DNA from: a virus
Lineage: Duplodnaviria; Caudoviricetes
Direction: 5' to 3' (one strand)
Length of the DNA: 38,736 bases
IMG/VR virus record: IMGVR_UViG_3300037424_002394
Span: 1 to 38,736 of that record
Under the pieces are notes generated by a model that saw nothing but the letters and a program-made list of their open reading frames with translations, had not been told where the DNA came from and did no database searches. A program made the translations under genes and the position numbers. Below are positions 7,602 to 37,015 of the stretch, piece after piece; the stretch's first letter is position 1, and each line of letters starts with the position of its first letter.

Positions 7602-8995
7602 ATCGGTAATTCCTCCTGTTCCTTTTCGCCTATGTTTGGTTCATATCTTTCCGGGTCTATTTCTTTATACTCACCATTCTTCATATAATATGTAATGAAC
7701 CGACCGCCGCTCTCGCCGTGACGGCTGTTTTTATAACTAATTACAAACAACCCGCCGTCTACTTTCAGTTCATGTCCGCCTATTTTTATTTTTTCTTTTT
7801 CTTCATTAATTGGTTTTGAAACCGAGAACCAAAAATCACAATCTTTTTCAAGAGCTTTGCTCTCGGCTGTTTTGCCTTCATCATTTTCTTGCGAAAGAAC
7901 AATTGTCCGCAGTTTCAATTCATTCGTTAAGCGTTTCAGCATGTGTGATATCTCAGCAACATCAAGGTCTTTACGTCCAACGTGAGTTTGAGTTACCTTA
8001 ACTAATTGAGCATAATCAACCATAATGTTTTTTACATCGTGCTTGCGATTTAAATATCTTATTTTTGATTCCAACTGCTGATCATTTAATATTTCGTCTG
8101 CAATAAAAAACTTTTTACCTTCAAACAATCCAACAGCTTTATCAAATGTTATTATCATTTTTCTTTTGTCATATAAAAGATCGCCGCTATTATTCTTCAT
8201 GCCCGGGTTTCTTAAGTAGTCATAACGTGTCCCGGTTGCAAGAGACAAATTCTTTTTAGCGTATTGATTGAACGGCATTTCGAAAGTAAATAATGCGGTT
8301 GGTTCGCCGTAGGTTTTAAAAAAATCCAACTCGATAGATAAACCCGTTGTTGTTTTTCCGCCCTTCGCCTTTCCTGATACTACAACCATCTCGCCCGGCA
8401 ATACGCCGCCGGTTGCAGCGTTGAATGAAGGAAAATTAGTTGACTTATAAACATGCCTGCTGCCGTCTGTTTGTTCGTGTTGCAAATCTTCATAAATCTT
8501 TTTCAGCTCATCACCGAGATTTTTTTCAGTTTCAAGAAAATTAATTTTATCCGTGATGTGATTTATTTTTGCTTTTGCCGCTTCAACCAATTCAACGGCA
8601 TCTTCTTCGGCATAACATTTTTCAATCGTCTGCACGGAAAAATTTATCAACTGTCGCAGTATCCATTTATCAATAATTATCATTGAGTGATATTCAATGT
8701 TCGCGGCGGTTGAAACATTCTTCGCGAGTTCGCTTATATAAACCGCTATTTCTTGCACATCATTTTTAGGTGACTTTTTTAATTCTTGGTAAACAGAAAC
8801 AGTATCTACCGGCAGATTAGCTCTGAACAACAAACACATCGCTTCAAATACATATCTGTTTTTATTGCTGTAAAAATGTTCCGGCTTTAATAACTCCATA
8901 CCTTTCGGTACCGCTTCGGGTTCAAGCATCATGGCTCCGAGCACAGAGGCTTCAACTTCAACAGCGTTTGGCGGTTGTTTACTAATTTCTTTCAT
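7598..8995 (-). CDS. dnaB: Replicative DnaB-like helicase
   Basis: N-terminal 'PPNAVEVEASVLGAMML', Walker A 'GKAKGGKTT', 'FTFEM', 'MVDYAQL', 'VLSQ' and 'KNSRHG'. Confidence 0.92.
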   Translation of the reverse strand: MKEISKQPPNAVEVEASVLGAMMLEPEAVPKGMELLKPEHFYSNKNRYVFEAMCLLFRANLPVDTVSVYQELKKSPKNDVQEIAVYISELAKNVSTAANIEYHSMIIIDKWILRQLINFSVQTIEKCYAEEDAVELVEAAKAKINHITDKINFLETEKNLGDELKKIYEDLQHEQTDGSRHVYKSTNFPSFNAATGGVLPGEMVVVSGKAKGGKTTTGLSIELDFFKTYGEPTALFTFEMPFNQYAKKNLSLATGTRYDYLRNPGMKNNSGDLLYDKRKMIITFDKAVGLFEGKKFFIADEILNDQQLESKIRYLNRKHDVKNIMVDYAQLVKVTQTHVGRKDLDVAEISHMLKRLTNELKLRTIVLSQENDEGKTAESKALEKDCDFWFSVSKPINEEKEKIKIGGHELKVDGGLFVISYKNSRHGESGGRFITYYMKNGEYKEIDPERYEPNIGEKEQEELPI

Positions 8996-9422
8996 ACATC
9001 CTTCTTAGTGCGCTATATATTAATCTATATTCTTTCTCGGCAGATTTTTGATTTAAATATTCCGGGGACAAACTCCAAATATTTCCCTTCGGCCCTTTAA
9101 TTTGTTTTACCTTTTTGCCATTCCAATAAATTAAACCCCATGCTTGTGGTAATTCATCTGGTTTAATTAAATCGTTTTCGCATAAATAAAATCTATAATC
9201 ACCTATTCCTTTATCTGGCATAAGCCTAAACATTTTCTTTTGATCAGCTAAGAAATCAGACCTTGAAATTTTACATTCAACCAATACGGTATAATCACAT
9301 CTTAACCCAAAAGCGTCCGGAGTTTCTTTTGCTGATGTAACTAATTCAGTAATTACAGCTCCGCATCCACAGCTTTTGTAAAGCCAATTTTCAGCAATCT
9401 TTATCAATTCATTGTGGGTCAT
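8982..9422 (-). CDS. PD-(D/E)XK nuclease-like protein, MmcB-like
   Basis: 'ETPDAFG..TVLVECKISRSDFLAD' and 'PDELPQAWGLI' motifs. Confidence 0.7.
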   Translation of the reverse strand: MTHNELIKIAENWLYKSCGCGAVITELVTSAKETPDAFGLRCDYTVLVECKISRSDFLADQKKMFRLMPDKGIGDYRFYLCENDLIKPDELPQAWGLIYWNGKKVKQIKGPKGNIWSLSPEYLNQKSAEKEYRLIYSALRRMYERN

Positions 9423-10363
9423 GCCTCTACCCCTATACGTTTTGTTTGATGTTCCTCAACTACGCTGCGCTGCTTATCTGCAGCCTCCGGAAACTCATTG
9501 TACCGCCGGTCCCTAAGCCAGTTATGCGCAAAGGGTATATATCTGCCGTTTTCTTTTCCCCACTCTTCACAAAGCTTAAACGCTTGCAGAGATTCATAAA
9601 TTTTAGCTAAAATGTACGGCTTAGCGTCAATCCCTTGGTTCAGCCACTCCAGCCATGCGGTGTATTCCTTTTCCTTTTTTGGATATTCCTCTAAAAAAAG
9701 TTTAAATGTTCCACTTCGAAATCCGTCATCCTCAGCAATTGCATTTCTTTGCGATTGTCCTGGAACTAATTCCAAATGTTTTCCGCGCGCGCCTGGTGTG
9801 TCTCTTCTGTGTCTATCCTGTGTCTTTAAAGCTTTATTTAAACGATTCTCAAAAGTAGCACTCCGACTCCCACTTTTGGGTAGTCCGACTCCCGTTTTTG
9901 GGTAGTCCGACTCCAATTTTTGAGAATCAGAATTCGGCTCATTATCAAAGCTTTCTTGTTTGGACTCCAATTTTTGAGAATCAATTTTTGAGTTGTTTTC
10001 GTGTTTTCCTTTTTCCAGACTCTCATTTTGATCGGCGGCTTTCTTAAGATATTCCAACATAGTGGGTCCGTAAGTGTACCACTTAGTGGTATCGTTCGCG
10101 TCCTCATTATAGTTGCCGGTTAAAATCCAACCGTCGGTTTCAAGCTGCTTCATCCATCTGTAAACAGACTTAACAGATTTGAAAAAAGGAAACTTTTCAA
10201 GAAAAGCTTTTGCGGTATCATAAAACCAATACTTGCCGTCGTGGAAATTTTGATTTGTATTTTTGTTATGTTCAACAAAATAAAATATTCTCTGCAGCAA
10301 AATCGCTTTTTCGATTCCCACTTTCCCGGCTAAATCATTATTAAAAATTGTGCTATCGTTCAA
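9419..10363 (-). CDS. Phage replication initiator
   Basis: N-terminal winged helix ('AGKVGIEKAILL..HDGKYWFY'), iteron-bearing linker and C-terminal 'YPKK..GRYIPFAHNWLRDRRY'; upstream of the helicase. Confidence 0.85.
   Translation of the reverse strand: MNDSTIFNNDLAGKVGIEKAILLQRIFYFVEHNKNTNQNFHDGKYWFYDTAKAFLEKFPFFKSVKSVYRWMKQLETDGWILTGNYNEDANDTTKWYTYGPTMLEYLKKAADQNESLEKGKHENNSKIDSQKLESKQESFDNEPNSDSQKLESDYPKTGVGLPKSGSRSATFENRLNKALKTQDRHRRDTPGARGKHLELVPGQSQRNAIAEDDGFRSGTFKLFLEEYPKKEKEYTAWLEWLNQGIDAKPYILAKIYESLQAFKLCEEWGKENGRYIPFAHNWLRDRRYNEFPEAADKQRSVVEEHQTKRIGVEA
9862..9983. repeat. Replication origin iterons (22-bp tandem repeats)
   Basis: TCCGACTCCCACTTTTGGGTAG (9862), TCCGACTCCCGTTTTTGGGTAG (9884), TCCGACTCCAATTTTTGAGAAT (9906) and GACTCCAATTTTTGAGAATCA (9963) inside the initiator gene, as in lambda O. 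Confidence 0.8.
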
Positions 10364-10772: not shown

Positions 10773-12623
10773 TTAGCAGTATTGTTCTAAAATTTTGTCT
10801 GTTTCTTTTTTGATGTGATTAATTGCTGTTATTACTTCCGCCGGTATAAAAGCCTCGTTAAAATCTTCGGCGTCCAACTCATCGTTTAAGTTATCAAGAG
10901 CGTTTAGTACGGCAAGTTTAAGTGTACGGGCTTTAGGTAAGATGAATTCTCTGTTAATATTTTCTTCAGCGTCTTCATCTTCTTTGTAAGGAAGCTGCAG
11001 TTTTATTGTTGTGGAAAACGAATCAACAAAATCACGGGTAAATATCATAACCATGACTACATCTTCGCTTTTCTTTTGGTATGCAGCTCTAACCGTTTCA
11101 CCAACATTTATTCTGCCTAATTCAAGCGCGCCGGAGATGTATTTACTTTTTATTTTATTTACGTCAACGCCGAGTTTTGATACTATGAAATTGTACTCAT
11201 CATCTTCGGCTTGTGATAACAAAAGCACACGTACAATAACCTGTGTAAGTTGTACACGGTTTAGTTTAATTAATTCGGAATACCAGATGTTGAACCATTG
11301 ACTTGATTTTTTATTTACATCGTCAAGCGTTATGTTTAGTTCAAAGGCATCTATTATTTGTTCCCTCATTGTTTCTGTGTTGATGGTTACATAATTATTG
11401 AGAATGAAAACAGAGGCAACTATAGCAAGTTCATTGTTCTCAAATTCTTCAACCTCAGTAATTGCCGTGTTGTAAATTTCAGAAGCAGCCGCTTCATCAA
11501 TAGGGGTAAAGTATTCTTCTACTTTGTTTTTTTCTTCAGTAAGTTTTTCCCATGAATCCGGAAATAATTCGTTATTATCAACAGCTTTATCCTTAAGCTC
11601 AGGCAAATCTTTATCAAGTATTATATCAACAATTTGCCCGGCTTTTTGGTTGGCGTCAACATAGATCCCTTTTTTCTTCAGCTTTTTATATGGCTTATGT
11701 ATGCCGGTGTCGTAGACCTCAAAATCGGTGTGCTCACTAAGCGTGTCTTTCTCAAACTGGGGTAAAGCTTTATTAAAGGAATAACTTTTCAGCAGATAAA
11801 GTTCTTCGCCTTTCTCCCGGTGTTTTTCTATTTCAAAATAAATGAACGCCGTTAATTTATCGCTGAAACAAGCCTTATCGGTGCACCTGTCATCCTCAGC
11901 GTATTCCGGAAACAGATGTTCGTTATACCCGGTGCGTTTTGGGCAGTCAACGCAGCTGCCGGCTTTGGTTAGTTGTTTGTCCTTAAGGCTCCACGGAACA
12001 TTTTGCAGCGCAAGCATATAGTTGCTTTCTATATGTTCCTTCAGTTCGGTAATGGATTTTTGGCTTCCGTTGTAGGTGTTCATCAAAAATTTTAATAACG
12101 GTTTCTGCTGCACCGGTTCGTGCCGCGCAAGTATAAGCGCATGACCGAGAAATATTTTATTTTCAAGTAAAGCGGTTTTTGCTTCTTCAATAAGATCGTT
12201 TAGTTTAATACGTTGATAAACATAATTCAGATTCTTCCCAAGCTTTGCCGCTACGAGCCCAGCATCGTACTTGCCGGTATCCAACAGCTTCTTAAAACTT
12301 TCCGCCTCTTTAAGCGGGTGTATGCCTTTGCGCTGTAAGTTTTCAATCAACTGTATTTCTAATACCGCGTTATCATCAAGCTGGCGAATTATAGACGGAA
12401 TTTCTTCAAGGTTGGAATAAAGCGCCGCCCGGTATCTTCTTTCTCCGAATATTATTTTGTACTTGTCTTCAAACTTACGTACCGATATCGCCTGCAGTAT
12501 TCCGTGAATAGCAACCGAATCGGCAAGTTCAAAAAATTCCGGAGAGTTAACATCTACCTCACCGCGCGGGTTGTTTTCATCCGGGATTATTTGATCAATT
12601 GGTATTTGTTTTAATCTTTCCAC
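10773..12623 (-). CDS. ParB/Spo0J-domain protein with Cys-rich motif and long C-terminal extension
   Basis: 'PDENNPR', 'GILQAISVR..YKIIFGERRYRA', 'LIENLQRKGIHPLKEAESF', an HTH and 'CVDCPKRT..CTDKACF'. Confidence 0.88.
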   Translation of the reverse strand: MERLKQIPIDQIIPDENNPRGEVDVNSPEFFELADSVAIHGILQAISVRKFEDKYKIIFGERRYRAALYSNLEEIPSIIRQLDDNAVLEIQLIENLQRKGIHPLKEAESFKKLLDTGKYDAGLVAAKLGKNLNYVYQRIKLNDLIEEAKTALLENKIFLGHALILARHEPVQQKPLLKFLMNTYNGSQKSITELKEHIESNYMLALQNVPWSLKDKQLTKAGSCVDCPKRTGYNEHLFPEYAEDDRCTDKACFSDKLTAFIYFEIEKHREKGEELYLLKSYSFNKALPQFEKDTLSEHTDFEVYDTGIHKPYKKLKKKGIYVDANQKAGQIVDIILDKDLPELKDKAVDNNELFPDSWEKLTEEKNKVEEYFTPIDEAAASEIYNTAITEVEEFENNELAIVASVFILNNYVTINTETMREQIIDAFELNITLDDVNKKSSQWFNIWYSELIKLNRVQLTQVIVRVLLLSQAEDDEYNFIVSKLGVDVNKIKSKYISGALELGRINVGETVRAAYQKKSEDVVMVMIFTRDFVDSFSTTIKLQLPYKEDEDAEENINREFILPKARTLKLAVLNALDNLNDELDAEDFNEAFIPAEVITAINHIKKETDKILEQYC

Positions 12624-13189: not shown

Positions 13190-14203
13190 TTACTCCATTG
13201 GGAATTCTTTATATTGAACGCCGTCTAATAACGCTCCGGCTTTCTTTTTGCCGACTCTCATAAAATGATATTCATCTTTAGTAATGAATAAAGACTTACC
13301 CGGCAATAGTATTGGTTTAAATTCTCCCCATTGCTTAAAGAAGAAAGGCACATCCGCAGCCTTACATTGATCCCTTAATGATCTTACCCAATCCGGATGC
13401 ATTGGCCGTATGTCTTTAGCTTTCCCGCTTTCCCCGCCGGCTATTACCCAGTCTATCCCGCCCCGGGATAATGACAGAGGTTCATTTCTTCCTTCAAAGG
13501 TCCACTCCCCAGCTAAAGGAAAAAGTAAGGCATGGCCATCTTCATCACTTATATCTATTTGCATTAGGTCAACCGGACCCAATAAAGGCTCACAGCTTAC
13601 AAATTTTGTTGCTGCCGGTATTTTGCAAAGCGTTGGTATTCTTTCATCTGCAGCTTTCTGATCCTCAACAGAAACACCCAGCCATACGTTTGATAACGGC
13701 CATTCCCTTTCATCATCAATTGCAAGACACAAAGGATAATCCCCCGGCCAGTTTTCGATTACTTTATAAATTTCTTCTGTTAAAAACTTTAAAGCCCGCT
13801 CAGGTCGTTTGGTAAGTATTTGATAGGTATGATTTTTCTCAGCATCATCCATATAACATTCGGGCTCATCATGGTAACAATCTTTCTTCCTGCACACAAG
13901 CGGTAACGCTGCCATTATGTTAAACACGTCTGCAATAAATTCCGCCGGTACATCCTCATGAAAAAGATCGCTCATTGAGTTAACAAAAAACATTGAAGGC
14001 GTTTTTACCTTAAGCGTATCCATCAAACTTTCATGGTGACAAACAACATTATTAAACGGTTCGCTATATTTGCTTACTCCCATTGCCGTCAATCTTTTGT
14101 GCATGGTTTCGGCATAGCAGTGCTTACATCCTTGCGATACCTTGCTGCACCCCGTAACCGGGTTCCATGTTCTTTCGGTCCATTCTATTTTTGAATTGCT
14201 CAT
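13190..14203 (-). CDS. Phage Gp37/Gp68 family (DUF5131) protein
   Basis: 'SKIEWTERTWNPVTGCSKVSQGCKHCYA' (CxxxxxxCxxC), 'FVNSMSDLFHE', 'QILTKRPER', 'SCEPLLGP', 'WVIAGGESG' and 'FFFKQWG'. Confidence 0.93.
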   Translation of the reverse strand: MSNSKIEWTERTWNPVTGCSKVSQGCKHCYAETMHKRLTAMGVSKYSEPFNNVVCHHESLMDTLKVKTPSMFFVNSMSDLFHEDVPAEFIADVFNIMAALPLVCRKKDCYHDEPECYMDDAEKNHTYQILTKRPERALKFLTEEIYKVIENWPGDYPLCLAIDDEREWPLSNVWLGVSVEDQKAADERIPTLCKIPAATKFVSCEPLLGPVDLMQIDISDEDGHALLFPLAGEWTFEGRNEPLSLSRGGIDWVIAGGESGKAKDIRPMHPDWVRSLRDQCKAADVPFFFKQWGEFKPILLPGKSLFITKDEYHFMRVGKKKAGALLDGVQYKEFPME

Positions 14204-14221
14204 GTTAAATCCAAAATTTTA

Positions 14222-14434
14222 TTAAGGGATAGGTGATTTGATCTTGAAAGCGACCCCATCGTATCCTTCAGTCACTTTATCAAAAAGATTTACAATAAAC
14301 TGTTCATATGTATAGCCAAATGCCTTTGCCTGTTCTGCATAAAGTTGATATTTCCCGTTAAATGTTGTTTTTGCAAATGAATCTATTTTCTCATTTTGAA
14401 GCTTTTGTTCGTCAGTCAATTTATCATCAGCCAT
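14222..14434 (-). CDS. Stand-alone paralogue of the capsid N-terminal (scaffold/delta-like) segment
   Basis: 27 of 53 aligned columns identical to residues 265-317 of ORF 34961-37015 (hand alignment). AGAGAGG RBS. Confidence 0.8.
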   Translation of the reverse strand: MADDKLTDEQKLQNEKIDSFAKTTFNGKYQLYAEQAKAFGYTYEQFIVNLFDKVTEGYDGVAFKIKSPIP

Positions 14435-14680: not shown

Positions 14681-15385
14681 TTATAAAAATCTCACCGGTT
14701 TTTTTGAGTTTTTGTTATATATCTCTTGAAAAATGTTTATGTATTCCTCTTGCGAGAAACAACGGACTAATAGTTTTGGATTCTTTTCGATTTGATCGAA
14801 TAATTGTTTTTTATTAAAATCATTTATTCGTAAGATGTGTCGAAGGGCCTTTAAAAATTCACGCCGTCTCCAATGTTTAAAACTATACCGGTTGTTAAAT
14901 TCCAACGCGAATTCTAAAACATTTATAACACCGCCTAAATCCATAAATTTAAATTCACCTGTATTAATTGCTTTATGAATCTTATCCCTCCCTTCTATTG
15001 CGGCAATAACCCCGGCACTTATTGTATATTTAAGCGATAGGTGTAAGAGCTCTCTATAATTTTTTTTGTCTTCAGTTGAATAAAACAAAACATAGTCATC
15101 TAACTTCCAATGACTTTGAAAGTTGTTTGTTTCGGCAACCCGGTCAATTCCGTATTCATCATCAGCAATCACAAAACTTATTTCAGCATTTACATCTTTA
15201 GCCGCTTGAAACCGATGCTGGCCGTCGAGGATTACATAATCTTTATCAACCACAATTGGAAATAGATGCAGTAAATTATTTTTTTCAATCGCTCCGGATA
15301 ATCTTTGAACCTTTGCAAAGTCAAGCTTTCTGTTTTTCCGGTGCAGACTAAATTTTTTGTATTCTGTAGTTTTTTGTATTATCAT
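14681..15385 (-). CDS. ParB/sulfiredoxin N-terminal domain protein
   Basis: 'NR..KVQRL...PIVVDKDYVILDGQHRFQAAK' and 'W..DDYV' motifs. Confidence 0.8.
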   Translation of the reverse strand: MIIQKTTEYKKFSLHRKNRKLDFAKVQRLSGAIEKNNLLHLFPIVVDKDYVILDGQHRFQAAKDVNAEISFVIADDEYGIDRVAETNNFQSHWKLDDYVLFYSTEDKKNYRELLHLSLKYTISAGVIAAIEGRDKIHKAINTGEFKFMDLGGVINVLEFALEFNNRYSFKHWRRREFLKALRHILRINDFNKKQLFDQIEKNPKLLVRCFSQEEYINIFQEIYNKNSKKPVRFL

Positions 15386-15408
15386 TTTTTCCTCTTAAAA
15401 AAGTTTTA

Positions 15409-15603
15409 TCATAAACCCGAAAAAATAATTGCTATAAACGCCGCCGCGATGAGCAGCATAAAAAACATTGTTCTGAATAAACCAATAGCGCCCAACCTCT
15501 GCTGGCAATCTTCATAAAGTTTGCAGTTCACACAATCATCCGAGTGTGTAACTGTCTTATCCAACTCCCAGCAGTGGAACGGTTGTTTAGTTATTGATTT
15601 CAT
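15409..15603 (-). CDS. Small Cys-rich membrane protein
   Basis: C-x(12)-CxxC-x(5)-C followed by a C-terminal transmembrane helix. Confidence 0.5.
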   Translation of the reverse strand: MKSITKQPFHCWELDKTVTHSDDCVNCKLYEDCQQRLGAIGLFRTMFFMLLIAAAFIAIIFSGL

Positions 15604-16075: not shown

Positions 16076-16104
16076 CATCCCCGCATGTTTTTGGCGGGGA
16101 TCCA
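16076..16104. repeat. REP-like palindrome, family CATYCCCGC..GCGGGRATCCA, copy 1
   Basis: CATCCCCGCATGTTTTTGGCGGGGATCCA; related copies at 27886 and 33643. Confidence 0.75.
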
Positions 16105-16108
16105 TTGT

Positions 16109-16313: not shown

Positions 16314-16532
16314 TTAATTAGTTTCGGAAATCAATTTTTCCGTAGTTGCCTTCAAAATATTTATTCCGCTGTCCCGTGAAAGATTTGTTGAGTAATAAAC
16401 TTTTGTGTAATCCGGCGGCAGCGAATAAACAACAGCAACCCCCGCCCTTTGCCCGGGGCAAAACATGTTGGAAATTAATTTCTCAACTTCCTTCCTTACA
16501 TTTGCTGCTTGTTTTATTTCTTCGCTGTTCAT
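16314..16532 (-). CDS. Hypothetical protein
   Basis: 72 aa with an AAGG RBS. Confidence 0.55.
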   Translation of the reverse strand: MNSEEIKQAANVRKEVEKLISNMFCPGQRAGVAVVYSLPPDYTKVYYSTNLSRDSGINILKATTEKLISETN

Positions 16533-16543
16533 CGCCGCCTTAT

Positions 16544-16910
16544 TATTCTTAACTTTTTAGATTATCCCGCGTAGATTCCCCGCTTTCTCCAAGCGCTTCG
16601 GATTCGTTTGTGTTTATATTACTTCCGGGTTTTTTAAGAGATTCGGAGTTTAATACATCATGTATAACAGCAAGCCGCGCAGGCTTATTGCCGTTAAAGG
16701 CGTCGTAGATTACAGAGTTGCTGCAGTTAAATTTTTTCATCAGCTCTTTAACGTAATTTTTACGCCCGAAAGCGATAATTGCACGCAGTCTCTCTTCTTC
16801 CGCGTTAAGAAGTTTGCCGCGCTCTACATATTGCTTAATAAGTTCTGTGTTGTTAAATTGTACGTTCATATCATTCTTTGGTTTTTATAATTTTTTGCGA
16901 GGAATTGACG
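16544..16910. repeat. 367-bp direct repeat, copy 1
   Basis: About 24 substitutions and no indels versus 17421-17787 (hand count, ~93% identity). Confidence 0.95.
16549..16869 (-). CDS. Cro-like HTH protein, copy 1
   Basis: 'YVKELMKKFNCSNSVIYDAFNG' HTH-like segment; near-identical to 17426-17746. Confidence 0.6.
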   Translation of the reverse strand: MNVQFNNTELIKQYVERGKLLNAEEERLRAIIAFGRKNYVKELMKKFNCSNSVIYDAFNGNKPARLAVIHDVLNSESLKKPGSNINTNESEALGESGESTRDNLKS

Positions 16911-16912
16911 TA

Positions 16913-17275
16913 TCAATTCCCGTCGTTTTTTGATTTATCAATAAATGGCATTAGTTCTCTTGCAAGTTTTTCTATTGCTTCTTTTGTAGCCGGTTTAGTT
17001 TTGTTAATGACTAAAGTGAAACGATCATCAAATAAGGGTTTTAAAAATGGAAACAGCTTCTCCGCTAACTCGCGGTAAAATTTTTGATTCTGAGTTAATC
17101 TATCCCATCCGGCAACAAGTTTTTCTTGCTCGGATTCCCGGATTACTTGGAAGCAATCTTCTAAAGATTTTGGAGCGTAACCCTCGCAAGGAACTGTACT
17201 GTTGTCATCATAGCGCGTTACCGAATATGATATCTCATAACCGAGATCTTTTGTTTCAATAATAAATTTTGTCAT
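16913..17275 (-). CDS. Hypothetical protein between the repeats
   Basis: GGAG RBS before ATG 17275 (track start 17287). Confidence 0.6.
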   Translation of the reverse strand: MTKFIIETKDLGYEISYSVTRYDDNSTVPCEGYAPKSLEDCFQVIRESEQEKLVAGWDRLTQNQKFYRELAEKLFPFLKPLFDDRFTLVINKTKPATKEAIEKLARELMPFIDKSKNDGN

Positions 17276-17420
17276 AGGAGTCTCCATGAATAATGATTTA
17301 AGTTTACAAATGCATGCAAAGGAAGAAGCAAGCCGTTTAACAATTGGTGAGTTGAAAAAACGCCTTTCAAATTATCCTGATGATTGGCAGATAACTTTTT
17401 GCTATTCATTTACACCTAAC

Positions 17421-17787
17421 TATTCTTAACTTTTTAGATTATTTAGCGTAGATTCCGCGCTTTCTCCAAGCATCTTGGATTCGTTTGTGTTTATATTACT
17501 TCCGGGTTTTTTAAGAGATAATTCGTTTAATAGATCATTGATAACAGCAAGCCGCGCGGGCTTATTGCCGTTAAAGGCATCATAGATTACAGAGTTGCTG
17601 CAGTTAAATTTTTTCATCAGCTCTTTAACGTAATTTTTACGCCCGAAAACGACAATTGCACGCAGTCTCTCTTCTTCCGCGTTAAGAAGTTTGCCGCGCT
17701 CTACATATTGCTTAATAAGATCTGTGTTGTTAAATTGTATGTTCATATCATTCTTTGGGTTTTATAATTTTTTGCGAGGAATTGACG
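17421..17787. repeat. 367-bp direct repeat, copy 2
   Basis: Offset 877 bp from copy 1. Confidence 0.95.
17426..17746 (-). CDS. Cro-like HTH protein, copy 2
   Basis: Same HTH as copy 1; near the 5' end of the operon divergent from cI. Confidence 0.6.
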   Translation of the reverse strand: MNIQFNNTDLIKQYVERGKLLNAEEERLRAIVVFGRKNYVKELMKKFNCSNSVIYDAFNGNKPARLAVINDLLNELSLKKPGSNINTNESKMLGESAESTLNNLKS

Positions 17788-17788
17788 C

Positions 17789-18061
17789 ATGTTTGGTTTA
17801 AAAGACTTAAACGAACTGCTTGATAAAATGCCGCTCTGGAAAAGAGTTGCCCAATCTCCTGATAGAATTGATGAATTAACTAAAAGAATTGAATCACTTG
17901 AAAAAAGATTATCAGGCAGCGGAGATATTTGTAAAAAATGTAAACAGCCAACTTTTGAGTTGGTAGATGTTAAAGTTCTTGAAGAAATTCTCGGGCTTAA
18001 AAAATACATTTATAAATGCTCCAATTGTGGTTTTGAAGATTTCAAAACAAAAGAAGATTAA
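17789..18061 (+). CDS. Coiled-coil plus Zn-ribbon protein, opposite strand to the lytic operon
   Basis: GAGGA RBS; CKKC...CSNC motif; TATAAT at 17763-17768. Confidence 0.7.
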   Translation: MFGLKDLNELLDKMPLWKRVAQSPDRIDELTKRIESLEKRLSGSGDICKKCKQPTFELVDVKVLEEILGLKKYIYKCSNCGFEDFKTKED

Positions 18062-18368: not shown

Positions 18369-18842
18369 TTGCATACTTTGAAAACATTTGGAGTGAAATT
18401 AAAAGAGTTTGCTAAACAAAAGGGCGGCGTAAATCAGCTTGCTATGATTACTAATATTACCCAAACACAATTATCTCAATATATATCTGGGACCCGAGAG
18501 CCTGGTAAAGCCATTCTCGAAAAAATAAAAAAAGCCGGTTGCGATATGAACTGGCTTTTGAACAATGACGACGCCAGCCCGGCAGTTGTGCGCGAAAGCA
18601 ACGTTGATTATAAATTAATTACCGAAGTTGAAGCCCTAAGCAAAGAGCTTGCAAAATTAAAAGAAGAAGTAACGGCGTTAAAAGAAATGCACTCAGATCA
18701 AGCGCTGCTAATCCACAGCCTCAAAAAAGAAAATGAAAGTTTAACAGAAGAGAACAGGGTGTTACGGGTTCAATCGGAAAGCATCACAGCTGCTCATGTT
18801 AAAATTGATGTGGAAAAAAATAATAAGTTGAAAGCGAAATAA
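18369..18842 (+). CDS. CI-like repressor (XRE HTH plus coiled coil, no S24 peptidase domain)
   Basis: 'NQLAMITNITQTQLSQYISGTREPG..L..I...GCDMNWLL'; divergent from the lytic operon. Confidence 0.85.
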   Translation: MHTLKTFGVKLKEFAKQKGGVNQLAMITNITQTQLSQYISGTREPGKAILEKIKKAGCDMNWLLNNDDASPAVVRESNVDYKLITEVEALSKELAKLKEEVTALKEMHSDQALLIHSLKKENESLTEENRVLRVQSESITAAHVKIDVEKNNKLKAK

Positions 18843-27885: not shown

Positions 27886-27940
27886 CATTCCCCGCAAATA
27901 GAGCGGGATTATAACCCGCACGTTTTTAGCGGGAATCCAG
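27886..27940. repeat. REP-like palindrome copy 2, with a second hairpin nested in it
   Basis: CATTC[CCCGCAAATAGAGCGGGATTATAA]CCCGCACGTTTTTAGCGGGAATCCAG. Confidence 0.7.
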
Positions 27941-27957
27941 TTTGTTTTTGACGAGAA

Positions 27958-33642: not shown

Positions 33643-33673
33643 GTCATTCCCGCATGCTTTTGGCGGGAATCCA
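33643..33673. repeat. REP-like palindrome copy 3
   Basis: GTCATTCCCGCATGCTTTTGGCGGGAATCCA, intergenic. Confidence 0.75.
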
Positions 33674-33979
33674 TTAATATTGATCCAGCGATAAATTAAT
33701 TTTTGTAAACCCATGTCCGTCGGGTAATTGTTCACCGGTGTAATAAGTGATACTGTCTTTAACAACCGTGCTATTTGTGTCCGAACCCGCAACCTCTTCG
33801 GAAGCGAGTTCGATCATATAGTTCTGAAGTACAATATCAACTCCGCCTACGTTAACAACTTCGCCCGGACTCCAGAACAATCCGTTCAAAGTTTTAGCAG
33901 ACCCGCCGACCGGAGTAAATACAACCGCATCGGCGAAGTCTGCTGTGTTGAGAAATATGTCTCGTTCGGTGATTGACAT
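33674..33979 (-). CDS. Head-tail joining protein (gpFII-like)
   Basis: 101 aa; 'FLNTADFAD.VVFTP' and 'PDGHGFTKINL'; synteny. Confidence 0.7.
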   Translation of the reverse strand: MSITERDIFLNTADFADAVVFTPVGGSAKTLNGLFWSPGEVVNVGGVDIVLQNYMIELASEEVAGSDTNSTVVKDSITYYTGEQLPDGHGFTKINLSLDQY

Positions 33980-34960: not shown

Positions 34961-37015
34961 TTATCCAACAAGCGCGTAATCATCAGCAATAACACCGGCT
35001 TGTGTTTGTCTGAATAAGAAATCAAACATCGAGAAAATTGTAAGCCTAACAAGACCGGCAGTTGAAAGGCTGTAAGGATCAATCAATAATTCCTCGGCGC
35101 CCCAGAACAACATATAGGCTTCCGCCCAGTTCGCGAGTGTAAGAACCTGATCGCCAACCTGGTTGGACCATTCATAAGGGAAACCATCCATTTGATTGTT
35201 CATCAAAAACGTTTGCCCTGTTGTCGCAAATTTCTCGGCGGCTTTAACCTCCTGTTCAACATCTGCGGACATTAACCACGCAAATCGGCTGCCGGAAAAT
35301 GCGTTTGCTTTCTTTATCGTTTTTGCGAACGAAAGAATTTTCCGCCATGTAGGCGCGGTCATTTCAACATCGGTAATTCCGGGTGTCTTTAAAAATCCAA
35401 GCGGCTCGGTAGTAACGCCGTCACCGTTAAGCGACAGGTAATCTACCTTAACGTTCTTCGTCGCTTCAAGTTCGTTCATCAGCATTGTATCAACCGATAA
35501 ATCAGATTGATAGAACCACTGGCGTCCGTACTGCGTGTTGCCGCTTACTGTATGAGGCTGAGCAGTAAGCTTGCCCGTAGTAATGTATGAGGCGCTCGCG
35601 GCGTTGTTTTCCGCAACTGCGGAAACGGAAAGCGATGAAACAATTTTAGGAATTTCAAGATTGCCCTGAAGTCCCGTGAGAATAGTCGCACCGAGTCTGC
35701 CCATAACAGTAGCGTTGCGTAAGAATTCAGGCATCAGATCGGTTCTGTGTTCGGTCGGTACGAACTCGCCGCCTTCCCCGGGTGTGGTAGAATGCGCGTT
35801 CATAAATTTGTTGCTCTTAACAGAGTGCTTAAGTTCGCGCTGGCGGATGTCGTAAGGCAAATAGATTGTTCCGTTCTGCGGAGCTTTGCCCAATTTCTTC
35901 TCAATTGCTTTTGAGCACTCGAATTCAAAAGAGATATTTTCAGATTCCGGCAGCTTGGTTTTTCCTTCGATAACCATTTGTGCGGCGCGTGTAAGCCGGA
36001 ATGTTTTTAATTGCTGCGGCGATAAATCAAGAAACGACGCCGGTGTTTCAAATGTGCTTCCTTCTTCCTGTATTTTGTCAAACACAAGAGATGCGAATTG
36101 ATCATAATTTAAACCGGTTGCTTTTGCTTTATCGGCAAATGCTTTGAACTTACCGTCAAAGCGGCTCTTCGCAAACGTGTCGATTTTTTCATCTTCAATT
36201 TTGCGAAGCTGCTCCGGTGTAAGATCTTTGTTTTTGTCTTTTTCGTCCAAGGTATTCCCCCCCGTGATTGTGATTGATTCAATTTTGTTTTCTAAACTTT
36301 TTTTATTTTCGTCCATTATTCTTTTTACTTCATCAAGAAAATCTAACCCATCCTCGTAGTGTGTGTGTGCAATTATATTTTTAATGGACTCGGGTACCTT
36401 TTTAAAATTTGTAAGCTGATTAAAAATTGCGAAGTTGTTAAACTGCGCTTTTGTTTCACCGATGATCCTATCAGCAAAGCCTTTCTCCACAGCCTCGGCG
36501 GCGGTAAGCCATGTTTCTTCATCCATCATTTTGGAAATTTCTTCGTCGGCAATTTTGGTTTTAGAATTGTAAGGCATTATTAAACTGCCTTTTAATTTAT
36601 CGAGTATGTCCGCCATCTTACGCATGTCTTTAGATTCGCCCACAACTCCGCCCCACGGATTGTGAATCATTAAGAAAGCATTCTCCGGCATCTCAACTTC
36701 TCCTGCCATGGCAATAACCGAAGCGATGGACGCGGCGAGTGAATCAATTTTTACTGTGACTTTTGCCGGGTGTTCTCTTAGCGCGTTATAAATAGCAAGC
36801 CCGGCAAACACTGACCCGCCGTCGCTATAAATGCTTACAATAATTTCTTTTGCTTTTATATTTTTTATAGACTGTACAATATCTTTCGCGTCAACTTCAT
36901 CCCAGTAATCGCCGATGATTCCGTATATCATCAAGTCTGCAGTATCTTCATTTTCATTTTTGATCTGGAATTCATTCTTAGAATATTTCTTGTAATTTTT
37001 AATTGGGTATTTCAT
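34961..37015 (-). CDS. ClpP-like prohead protease fused in frame to HK97-fold major capsid protein
   Basis: 'YSDGGSVF', 'LAASIASVIAMAG', 'LMIHNPW' and 'ETWLTAAEA' (ClpP); 'GGEFVPTE', 'LGATILTGLQG' and 'DPYS..TAGLVRL' (capsid). Probable internal TTG start at 36250. Confidence 0.93.
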   Translation of the reverse strand: MKYPIKNYKKYSKNEFQIKNENEDTADLMIYGIIGDYWDEVDAKDIVQSIKNIKAKEIIVSIYSDGGSVFAGLAIYNALREHPAKVTVKIDSLAASIASVIAMAGEVEMPENAFLMIHNPWGGVVGESKDMRKMADILDKLKGSLIMPYNSKTKIADEEISKMMDEETWLTAAEAVEKGFADRIIGETKAQFNNFAIFNQLTNFKKVPESIKNIIAHTHYEDGLDFLDEVKRIMDENKKSLENKIESITITGGNTLDEKDKNKDLTPEQLRKIEDEKIDTFAKSRFDGKFKAFADKAKATGLNYDQFASLVFDKIQEEGSTFETPASFLDLSPQQLKTFRLTRAAQMVIEGKTKLPESENISFEFECSKAIEKKLGKAPQNGTIYLPYDIRQRELKHSVKSNKFMNAHSTTPGEGGEFVPTEHRTDLMPEFLRNATVMGRLGATILTGLQGNLEIPKIVSSLSVSAVAENNAASASYITTGKLTAQPHTVSGNTQYGRQWFYQSDLSVDTMLMNELEATKNVKVDYLSLNGDGVTTEPLGFLKTPGITDVEMTAPTWRKILSFAKTIKKANAFSGSRFAWLMSADVEQEVKAAEKFATTGQTFLMNNQMDGFPYEWSNQVGDQVLTLANWAEAYMLFWGAEELLIDPYSLSTAGLVRLTIFSMFDFLFRQTQAGVIADDYALVG

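Follow-up and report, generated by a model that had tools for sequence, protein, structure and literature searches.

A small gene in the putative early operon of a temperate phage resembles an inferred scaffold segment of the phage's own capsid polyprotein and may act as a decoy

The window, by which we mean the whole 38,736-nt stretch of DNA that was analyzed, corresponds to an entire viral record and carries a 185-nt terminal repeat. Among its genes are those for integrase and repressor, for replication, for a gpA-type terminase and a lambda-type portal, for a fusion of a ClpP-like protease to the major capsid protein, and for the tail, and by that gene content the window is an autonomous temperate phage. 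Genome scans for a host gave no useful match. The gene of interest is a 70-aa open reading frame, here called the mini gene, with the repressor (18369-18842) on one side and the replication genes on the other. The features at this locus and at the capsid locus are as follows.

14222-14434, minus strand: mini gene, 70 aa (ORF list; gene calls in JGI/IMG and Logan).
14267-14419, minus strand: conserved copy of capsid residues 265 to 317 in mini codons 6 to 56, predicted to form three helices (BLASTP, shuffles, AlphaFold2).
14204-14266, minus strand: tail of the mini ORF plus spacer, with a decayed, out-of-frame DNA likeness to capsid codons 323 to 343 (score 42, post hoc test).
14195-14426: optional segment of 232 bp, absent from the sister phage G002.
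14441-14444, minus strand: GAGG, like a ribosome-binding site, within the end of the upstream HTH gene (sequence).
13190-14203, minus strand: DUF5131 gene, given for context (family match).
34961-37015, minus strand: ClpP-like protease/major capsid fusion, 684 aa (PF00574 at residues 52 to 186, PF05065 at residues 415 to 671).
36065-36223, minus strand: parent segment, residues 265 to 317 of the protease-capsid polyprotein (BLASTP; longest stretch near pLDDT 70 in the internal-capsid model).
35987-36049, minus strand: capsid codons 323 to 343, the likely parent of the decayed tail (DNA alignment tests).
36248-36263, minus strand: likely internal capsid start, consisting of a G-run, 6 nt, and TTG at codon 256 (sequence and matching starts in relatives).

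The mini gene has the appearance of a translated gene. Its reading frame is intact from an ATG, GAGG lies 6 nt 5' of that ATG, and the HTH gene upstream ends with a stop codon that overlaps this start, all of which bears out a preliminary description of this DNA that had called the ORF intact and equipped with a ribosome-binding site. Moreover, it is called as a gene in both assembly sources, where it forms a cluster of 1. The same description had assigned the gene to the early operon; its placement between the repressor and the replication genes is confirmed, and early expression is what that position suggests. Other features of the window are recorded here in their own right. A 234-aa ParB-like gene (14681-15385) is likewise optional, as sister contigs skip 14681-15410. 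A 393-bp duplication (16521-16913 and 17398-17790, 92% identical) doubles a 106-aa early gene that is present once in G002. Three iteron-like 22-bp direct repeats (9862-9927) lie within the replication initiator gene, and an intergenic, hairpin-like element of 31 nt occurs in three copies (16076-16106, 27911-27941, and 33645-33675). The DUF5131 protein also matches the PADLOC candidate defense models PDC-M30B and PDC-M41B.

What the mini gene resembles is clear. By BLASTP against the 684-aa polyprotein, mini residues 6 to 56 match polyprotein residues 265 to 317 with 27 of 53 positions identical, 41 of 53 positive, and an E value of 8e-15, in agreement with the identity and the many conservative changes first noticed. 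Pairwise alignment with shuffling statistics, which had been proposed as a check, gave a score of 137 (z = 22) that none of 5,000 shuffles reached, and when 300 shuffled mini sequences were compared with each of the 617 pieces from the six frames of the window, the top score was 62. At the DNA level the identity is 57%. In the protein, 13 of 14 large hydrophobic residues remain hydrophobic. The mini protein is identical to its own capsid at 27 of 51 positions and to the capsids of two relatives at 29 of 51 each, a difference that is not significant, and those capsids are themselves alike at 32 to 40 of 51.

The parent segment lies in front of the shell of the capsid. The polyprotein matches NF045542 above its cutoff and NF045540 below its cutoff, and the related solved chain 8gta_A matches it from the GG motif onward, near the start of the shell fold. 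Residues 265 to 317 thus fall N-terminal to the HK97-fold shell domain, where a delta domain is placed. Three relatives have KGG/KEE..M starts at the place of the TTG at codon 256, and in several relatives the same capsid is joined to another protease domain. Because of the TTG and G-run, the relatives' starts, and the swapped protease domains, we take the segment to belong to the capsid and likely to open an internally initiated precursor. An internal capsid start at codon 256 is therefore likely, in keeping with the earlier remark that the mini gene begins about where such a start would lie; the start itself is deduced from these signals. A profile of the helical unit (A6) matched 6 of 50 phage records, two of them members of the profile, and always in polyprotein frames of 646 to 735 aa. 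As a separate observation, a capsid up to 75% identical across these phages has ClpP as its fusion partner in the window but a protease domain unrelated to ClpP in P0004-P0006, L165, and L166, which amounts to a protease swap within the polyprotein.

How much of the scaffold was copied can be estimated. Since the shell fold starts near residue 415, the delta region probably extends from 256 to about 406, and a conserved AHS motif suggests cleavage by the prohead protease near 406. The copied part is a predicted three-helix unit, about one-third of that region, and includes no part of the shell fold. In a precursor model of low quality (mean pLDDT 35, from 5 sequences), residues 267 to 317 form three short helices near pLDDT 70, and in the AlphaFold2 model of the mini protein (mean pLDDT 70.7) helices span residues 8 to 27, 30 to 39, and 43 to 61. 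The copied piece coincides with the predicted unit 267 to 317, though the two models are not independent, because the alignment behind the mini model includes those capsid segments. The preliminary description had seen a mimic of the capsid scaffold domain; the copy does lie in the probable scaffold region, but it covers only about 53 of about 150 residues.

The copied codons appear to have been conserved as protein. Between the mini gene and its own capsid, identity by codon position is 33, 38, and 16 of 51, with a pN/pS of 0.30, so that third positions are saturated while the hydrophobic pattern is kept. Simulated neutral decay from its own capsid produced 0 such outcomes in 5,000 at each of six distances. 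A recent capture from an unsampled donor passes this test, because the mini protein matches the capsids of relatives as well as its own and those capsids are themselves alike at 32 to 40 of 51; related capsids sampled numbered eight or so. Such a donor matters to one alternative, namely that a fragment of the capsid gene of a related phage entered, by recombination, an early operon prone to duplication and is merely carried there, its frame open by chance or in order to pass ribosomes to DUF5131. The mini gene is a singleton, the same operon holds other duplications and optional genes, and the small sample of capsids leaves room for a donor, all of which would suit a passenger.

The DNA behind the copied codons speaks to the age of the capture. 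The 63 nt that follow mini codon 56 and run past the stop resemble capsid codons 323 to 343 at a level reached by 1 to 2 of 5,000 shuffles and by 2 of 851 other windows, in a test that was post hoc (p about 0.002) and with a gapped local alignment that inflates identity. In this tail 4 of 20 residues are kept and DNA identity is flat over the codon positions (13 of 21, 11 of 20, and 12 of 20), whereas true capsids retain residues 323 to 343 at 20 of 21 and 15 of 21 positions. Third-position identity is, oddly, higher in the tail (12 of 20) than in the kept part (16 of 51; p = 0.03). Because the tail is out of frame and decayed while the helical unit is kept, the capture looks old. Decay of the tail next to 51 codons that remained open and conserved argues against a passenger. 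Moreover, in an unresolved tree of 8 rows, where the mini protein groups with capsids at a support of 88/94 that is not firm, its branch measures 1.05 changes per column versus 0.05 to 0.51 for the three nearest capsids, which also speaks against a passenger. We consider the passenger account unlikely. The data point to selection on the protein after capture, as had been proposed, with the post hoc tail test as the sole argument against an unsampled donor.

The mini gene differs in presence between close relatives. The sister phage G002 encodes a polyprotein 91% identical to that of the window and lacks the mini gene; there the HTH gene runs into DUF5131 at the same coupled start that serves the mini gene here. 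The joint 14194-14427, in which the segment is missing, is found in contigs of 5 of 6 runs from 2 studies and in G002. The segment is called optional on the strength of a presence/absence difference seen in two genomes, and gain here or loss there would both fit. The sister bears on a second alternative, in which the mini protein interferes with assembly directly by joining scaffold oligomers as a chain stopper, so as to poison co-infecting relatives or to delay or tune nucleation of its own prohead. In HK97, scaffold residues 2 to 66 are reported to bind the portal and the first 65 to form trimeric towers (PMC10275583), and the mini protein copies the positionally equivalent front end. Its slightly closer match to relatives' capsids would suit a poison of relatives, but the difference is not significant and the tree does not decide it. 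The predicted mini fold, moreover, is three short helices rather than one long coiled coil, a gene of the lytic operon would presumably be off in a lysogen and would meet its own capsid first, and a sister with a nearly identical polyprotein does without the gene. On balance, direct interference seems doubtful to us.

Searches for relatives of the mini protein were negative. Among proteins of 38 to 123 aa it found only itself, and among 30 longer candidates it found none, in a weak search that missed its own capsid too. A search of 1.84 billion representatives returned the mini protein itself and one unrelated-looking repeat protein (E value of 8e-5). Viral contigs and GenBank phages yielded no relatives, and ESM Atlas matches were all under 0.9. 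In structure searches, the best E value in the Foldseek viral search was 0.32 and structure comparison gave generic helical bundles (best VIA Z 5.3); against solved chains by sequence there was no match (best E value of 0.085). No Pfam, PHROG, or NCBIfam match and no match across four family libraries was found for the protein, and an Rfam search gave nothing. The expectation of coevolving pairs of mini and capsid genes is not supported, as there is a single carrier whose mini protein resembles the capsids of relatives at least as well as its own. We conclude that the mini gene is real and probably selected and that it matches no family in the libraries searched.

Other phages carry short copies of their own virion genes. 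We surveyed 40 records, comprising the two sisters and 38 of 50 profile-search records that had been chosen by likeness in portal, ClpP, or DUF5131, with 9 of the surveyed records missing up to 2.5 kb. Nine of the 40 have a small ORF that matches a large one, and in four of them (the window, G002, G005, and G040) the large one is a virion protein. All four structural copies lie in stop-free ORFs with a start codon, which counts against passengers, although tblastn favors such copies. Five other matches were set aside: that in G025 was a cut artifact, that in G046 was an acyl-carrier duplication, and those in G010, G011, and G031 have parents that were not identified as structural, G031 without a family scan. 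Also left uncounted was an ORF in G002 (L161:8860-9111) with an N terminus weakly like its own tape-measure end (15 of 36, z = 8.4); it overlaps ORFs on the opposite strand, and its exact protein is absent from the records. We note that G046 has an acyl-carrier-like protein (L291:6752-7069) beside an acyl-carrier/DUF5131 fusion (8139-9293).

The structural copies differ in parent and constraint. In G002, a 68-aa ORF (L082:6984-7190) consists of the first 20 codons of the next gene, duplicated, and portal codons 329 to 369; it lies directly behind DUF5131, is absent from the window, and its protein is found on 11 contigs. Identity of the portal piece by codon position is 39, 37, and 28 of 41. 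This piece may correspond to the portal clip domain, where Avs4 may bind. Beyond the two sisters, 2 of 38 records carry copies of a tape-measure end. In G005, the first 36 residues of a 77-aa ORF behind the terminase (L221:3429-3662) copy the C terminus of its own tape measure, with 22 of 35 residues identical, 26, 28, and 13 of 36 by codon position, and a pN/pS of 0.26. The G005 protein matches phrog_27995 weakly and has no distant relatives; two variants each differ by one residue outside the copied part. In G040, an early-region ORF (L288:19521-19940) less than 1 kb before DUF5131 contains a recent copy of its own tape-measure C terminus that shows no protein-level constraint (36, 40, and 38 of 43; pN/pS of 0.94), as a passenger would. 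DUF5131 has the mini gene on its 5' side in the window and the portal copy on its 3' side in G002. A copy lies nearby in 3 of 16 DUF5131-bearing records, which were partly picked by DUF5131, and G005 has no DUF5131; the link is only a hint.

Perhaps the helical unit persisted simply because it makes a small, stable protein, now with a binding partner outside capsid biology. Its long branch would fit such recycling, as would changes in 8 of the 29 columns that are invariant in near capsids and a net charge of -2 versus 0 in the parent segment, which makes the mini protein more acidic. Of eight deeply conserved columns, however, seven are identical in the mini protein and the eighth is a change from F to Y. 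Repeated capture of assembly proteins specifically would also be unexpected if any fold would do. We regard recycling of the fold as distinctly improbable.

We favor a decoy, at a probability of roughly 0.4. Judging from the sequence, the mini protein may be made early and may soak up a blocker or a sensor of head assembly. About 85 codons of a capsid gene from this subfamily would have been captured behind an existing coupled start, after which the three-helix unit was presumably kept by selection while the remainder was frameshifted and decayed. Made ahead of the late genes, and without the rest of the scaffold or the shell fold, the protein would build no head and yet could present the same surface. 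The likeliest target would be a blocker, encoded by a prophage or a satellite, that acts stoichiometrically on assembly and is Tab/Tai-like but head-directed. A blocker is likelier than a sensor, because a blocker is neutralized simply by being bound, but a sensor might be triggered by a fragment. Indeed, target fragments are reported to suffice in some cases for activation of Avs7/8/10-type defense (10.64898/2026.01.04.697583), and the scaffold domain of a prohead protease triggers one CBASS in vivo (10.1101/2023.05.21.541620); a decoy for a sensor is disfavored accordingly. An outside, changing opponent fits better than a fixed role in the phage's own assembly, because the cargo differs and its presence varies between sisters. 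Against the decoy, the G040 copy is unconstrained, and no head-directed Tab-like blocker is documented for the host.

The copied pieces are surfaces of assembly proteins, the genes are optional, and the cargo differs, and therefore the set as a whole also fits an outside opponent. We tentatively suggest, as a possibility that we would not call probable, that temperate phages repeatedly mint counterdefense genes from their own virion assembly interfaces (the scaffold front, a portal segment, and the tape-measure end) in a swappable early-operon slot. The pieces would then map surfaces attacked by undiscovered blockers or sensors, here head-directed and recognizing the capsid scaffold. If the copies are decoys, then screening genomes for short copies of their own genes would reveal which virion surfaces are under attack by hosts, prophages, or satellites, and each copy would be ready bait for finding its attacker. 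The present case would then predict a defense aimed at the capsid scaffold and not at the shell fold. The sister phages, whose cargo beside DUF5131 differs, constitute a natural swap experiment. If instead the copies are passengers, they still show the birth of small genes from pieces of structural genes in phages.

Known systems resemble the mini gene in part. Like the HK97 delta domain, the parent segment stands at the front of a probable capsid precursor, before the shell fold; unlike that domain, the mini protein is free-standing, encoded in the presumed early operon, limited to about one-third of the region, and predicted to fold into three helices, not into a long coiled coil. In Tab/anti-Tab and Tai/Ati, blockers encoded by prophages bind proteins needed for assembly and are in turn neutralized by small phage proteins (PMC10884400, PMC11364771). 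Sensitivity to Tab maps to the tape-measure C terminus (PMC10884400), the piece that is copied in G005 and G040, and escape from Tai maps to the central tail fiber (PMC11364771). Those targets are in the tail, however, and the countergenes are late, are paired with a blocker, and are not described as copies of the target in the available text of either paper (PMC10884400, PMC11364771). DSAD1, also a small phage protein, protects by a proposed competition with the tail tube for DSR2; the accessible part of the report does not describe it as a tail-tube copy (PMC11263360), whereas the mini protein is a copy in sequence and a putative decoy. Avs7/8/10 are reported to bind the capsid A-domain and to leave variable extensions unbound (10.64898/2026.01.04.697583), so these best-known capsid sensors are not a plausible target. 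A decoy for Avs7/8/10 was set aside, as about 100 residues separate the copied segment from the shell fold that follows it, and the A-domain surface is absent. No family in four libraries and no GenBank phage gave a match to the mini protein, and its resemblance to anti-Tab, Ati, and DSAD1 is one of proposed role.

Satellites too make accessory proteins that act on capsids. SaPI CpmB, for example, redirects capsid assembly. The preliminary description had drawn an analogy to SaPI Ccm, also a capsid-derived accessory gene, but the analogy fails, as Ccm of SaPIbov5 is a 355-aa full HK97-fold capsid protein that the satellite builds into pentamers (PMC8569155). The mini protein has 70 aa and no shell fold, its homology ends at 317 to 343, and it is encoded by an autonomous phage. 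A Ccm-type redirector of a satellite was rejected, as the window has its own terminase, portal, capsid, tail, integrase, and repressor.

In a diversity-generating retroelement (DGR), too, a stretch of a structural gene occurs twice in one genome. The template repeat of a DGR is nearly identical to that stretch and differs from it at adenines. A template repeat was rejected for the mini gene: at 57% DNA identity, 25 of 66 mismatches have A in the copy, versus 11 of 12 in a control, G012. No reverse transcriptase was found among the 30 to 36 ORFs scanned in the window, where frames longer than 150 aa gave a single motif match, inside DUF5131. The control is itself an observation of a DGR-like template/variable pair (L238:10778-10921 and 11277-12533).

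In the main text of mostly open-access papers, we found no account of a phage that carries its own scaffold segment as a free-standing copy. In its available text, the EVADES preprint discusses DNA mimics and does not use the word capsid, and its tables could list a structural mimic (10.1101/2025.06.06.658234). The claim that the mini gene has no described equivalent thus stands for the literature searched, but its singularity does not, as similar copies of other assembly proteins occur in the sister phage and in 2 of 38 further records. Some animal viruses make nonassembling forms of their own structural proteins that may divert immunity. Those decoys come from the same gene as the virion protein, whereas the mini gene is a separate, diverged gene of a phage. 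As far as sequence comparison can tell, the mini gene is probably a previously undescribed variant of viral decoy or assembly-interference genes.
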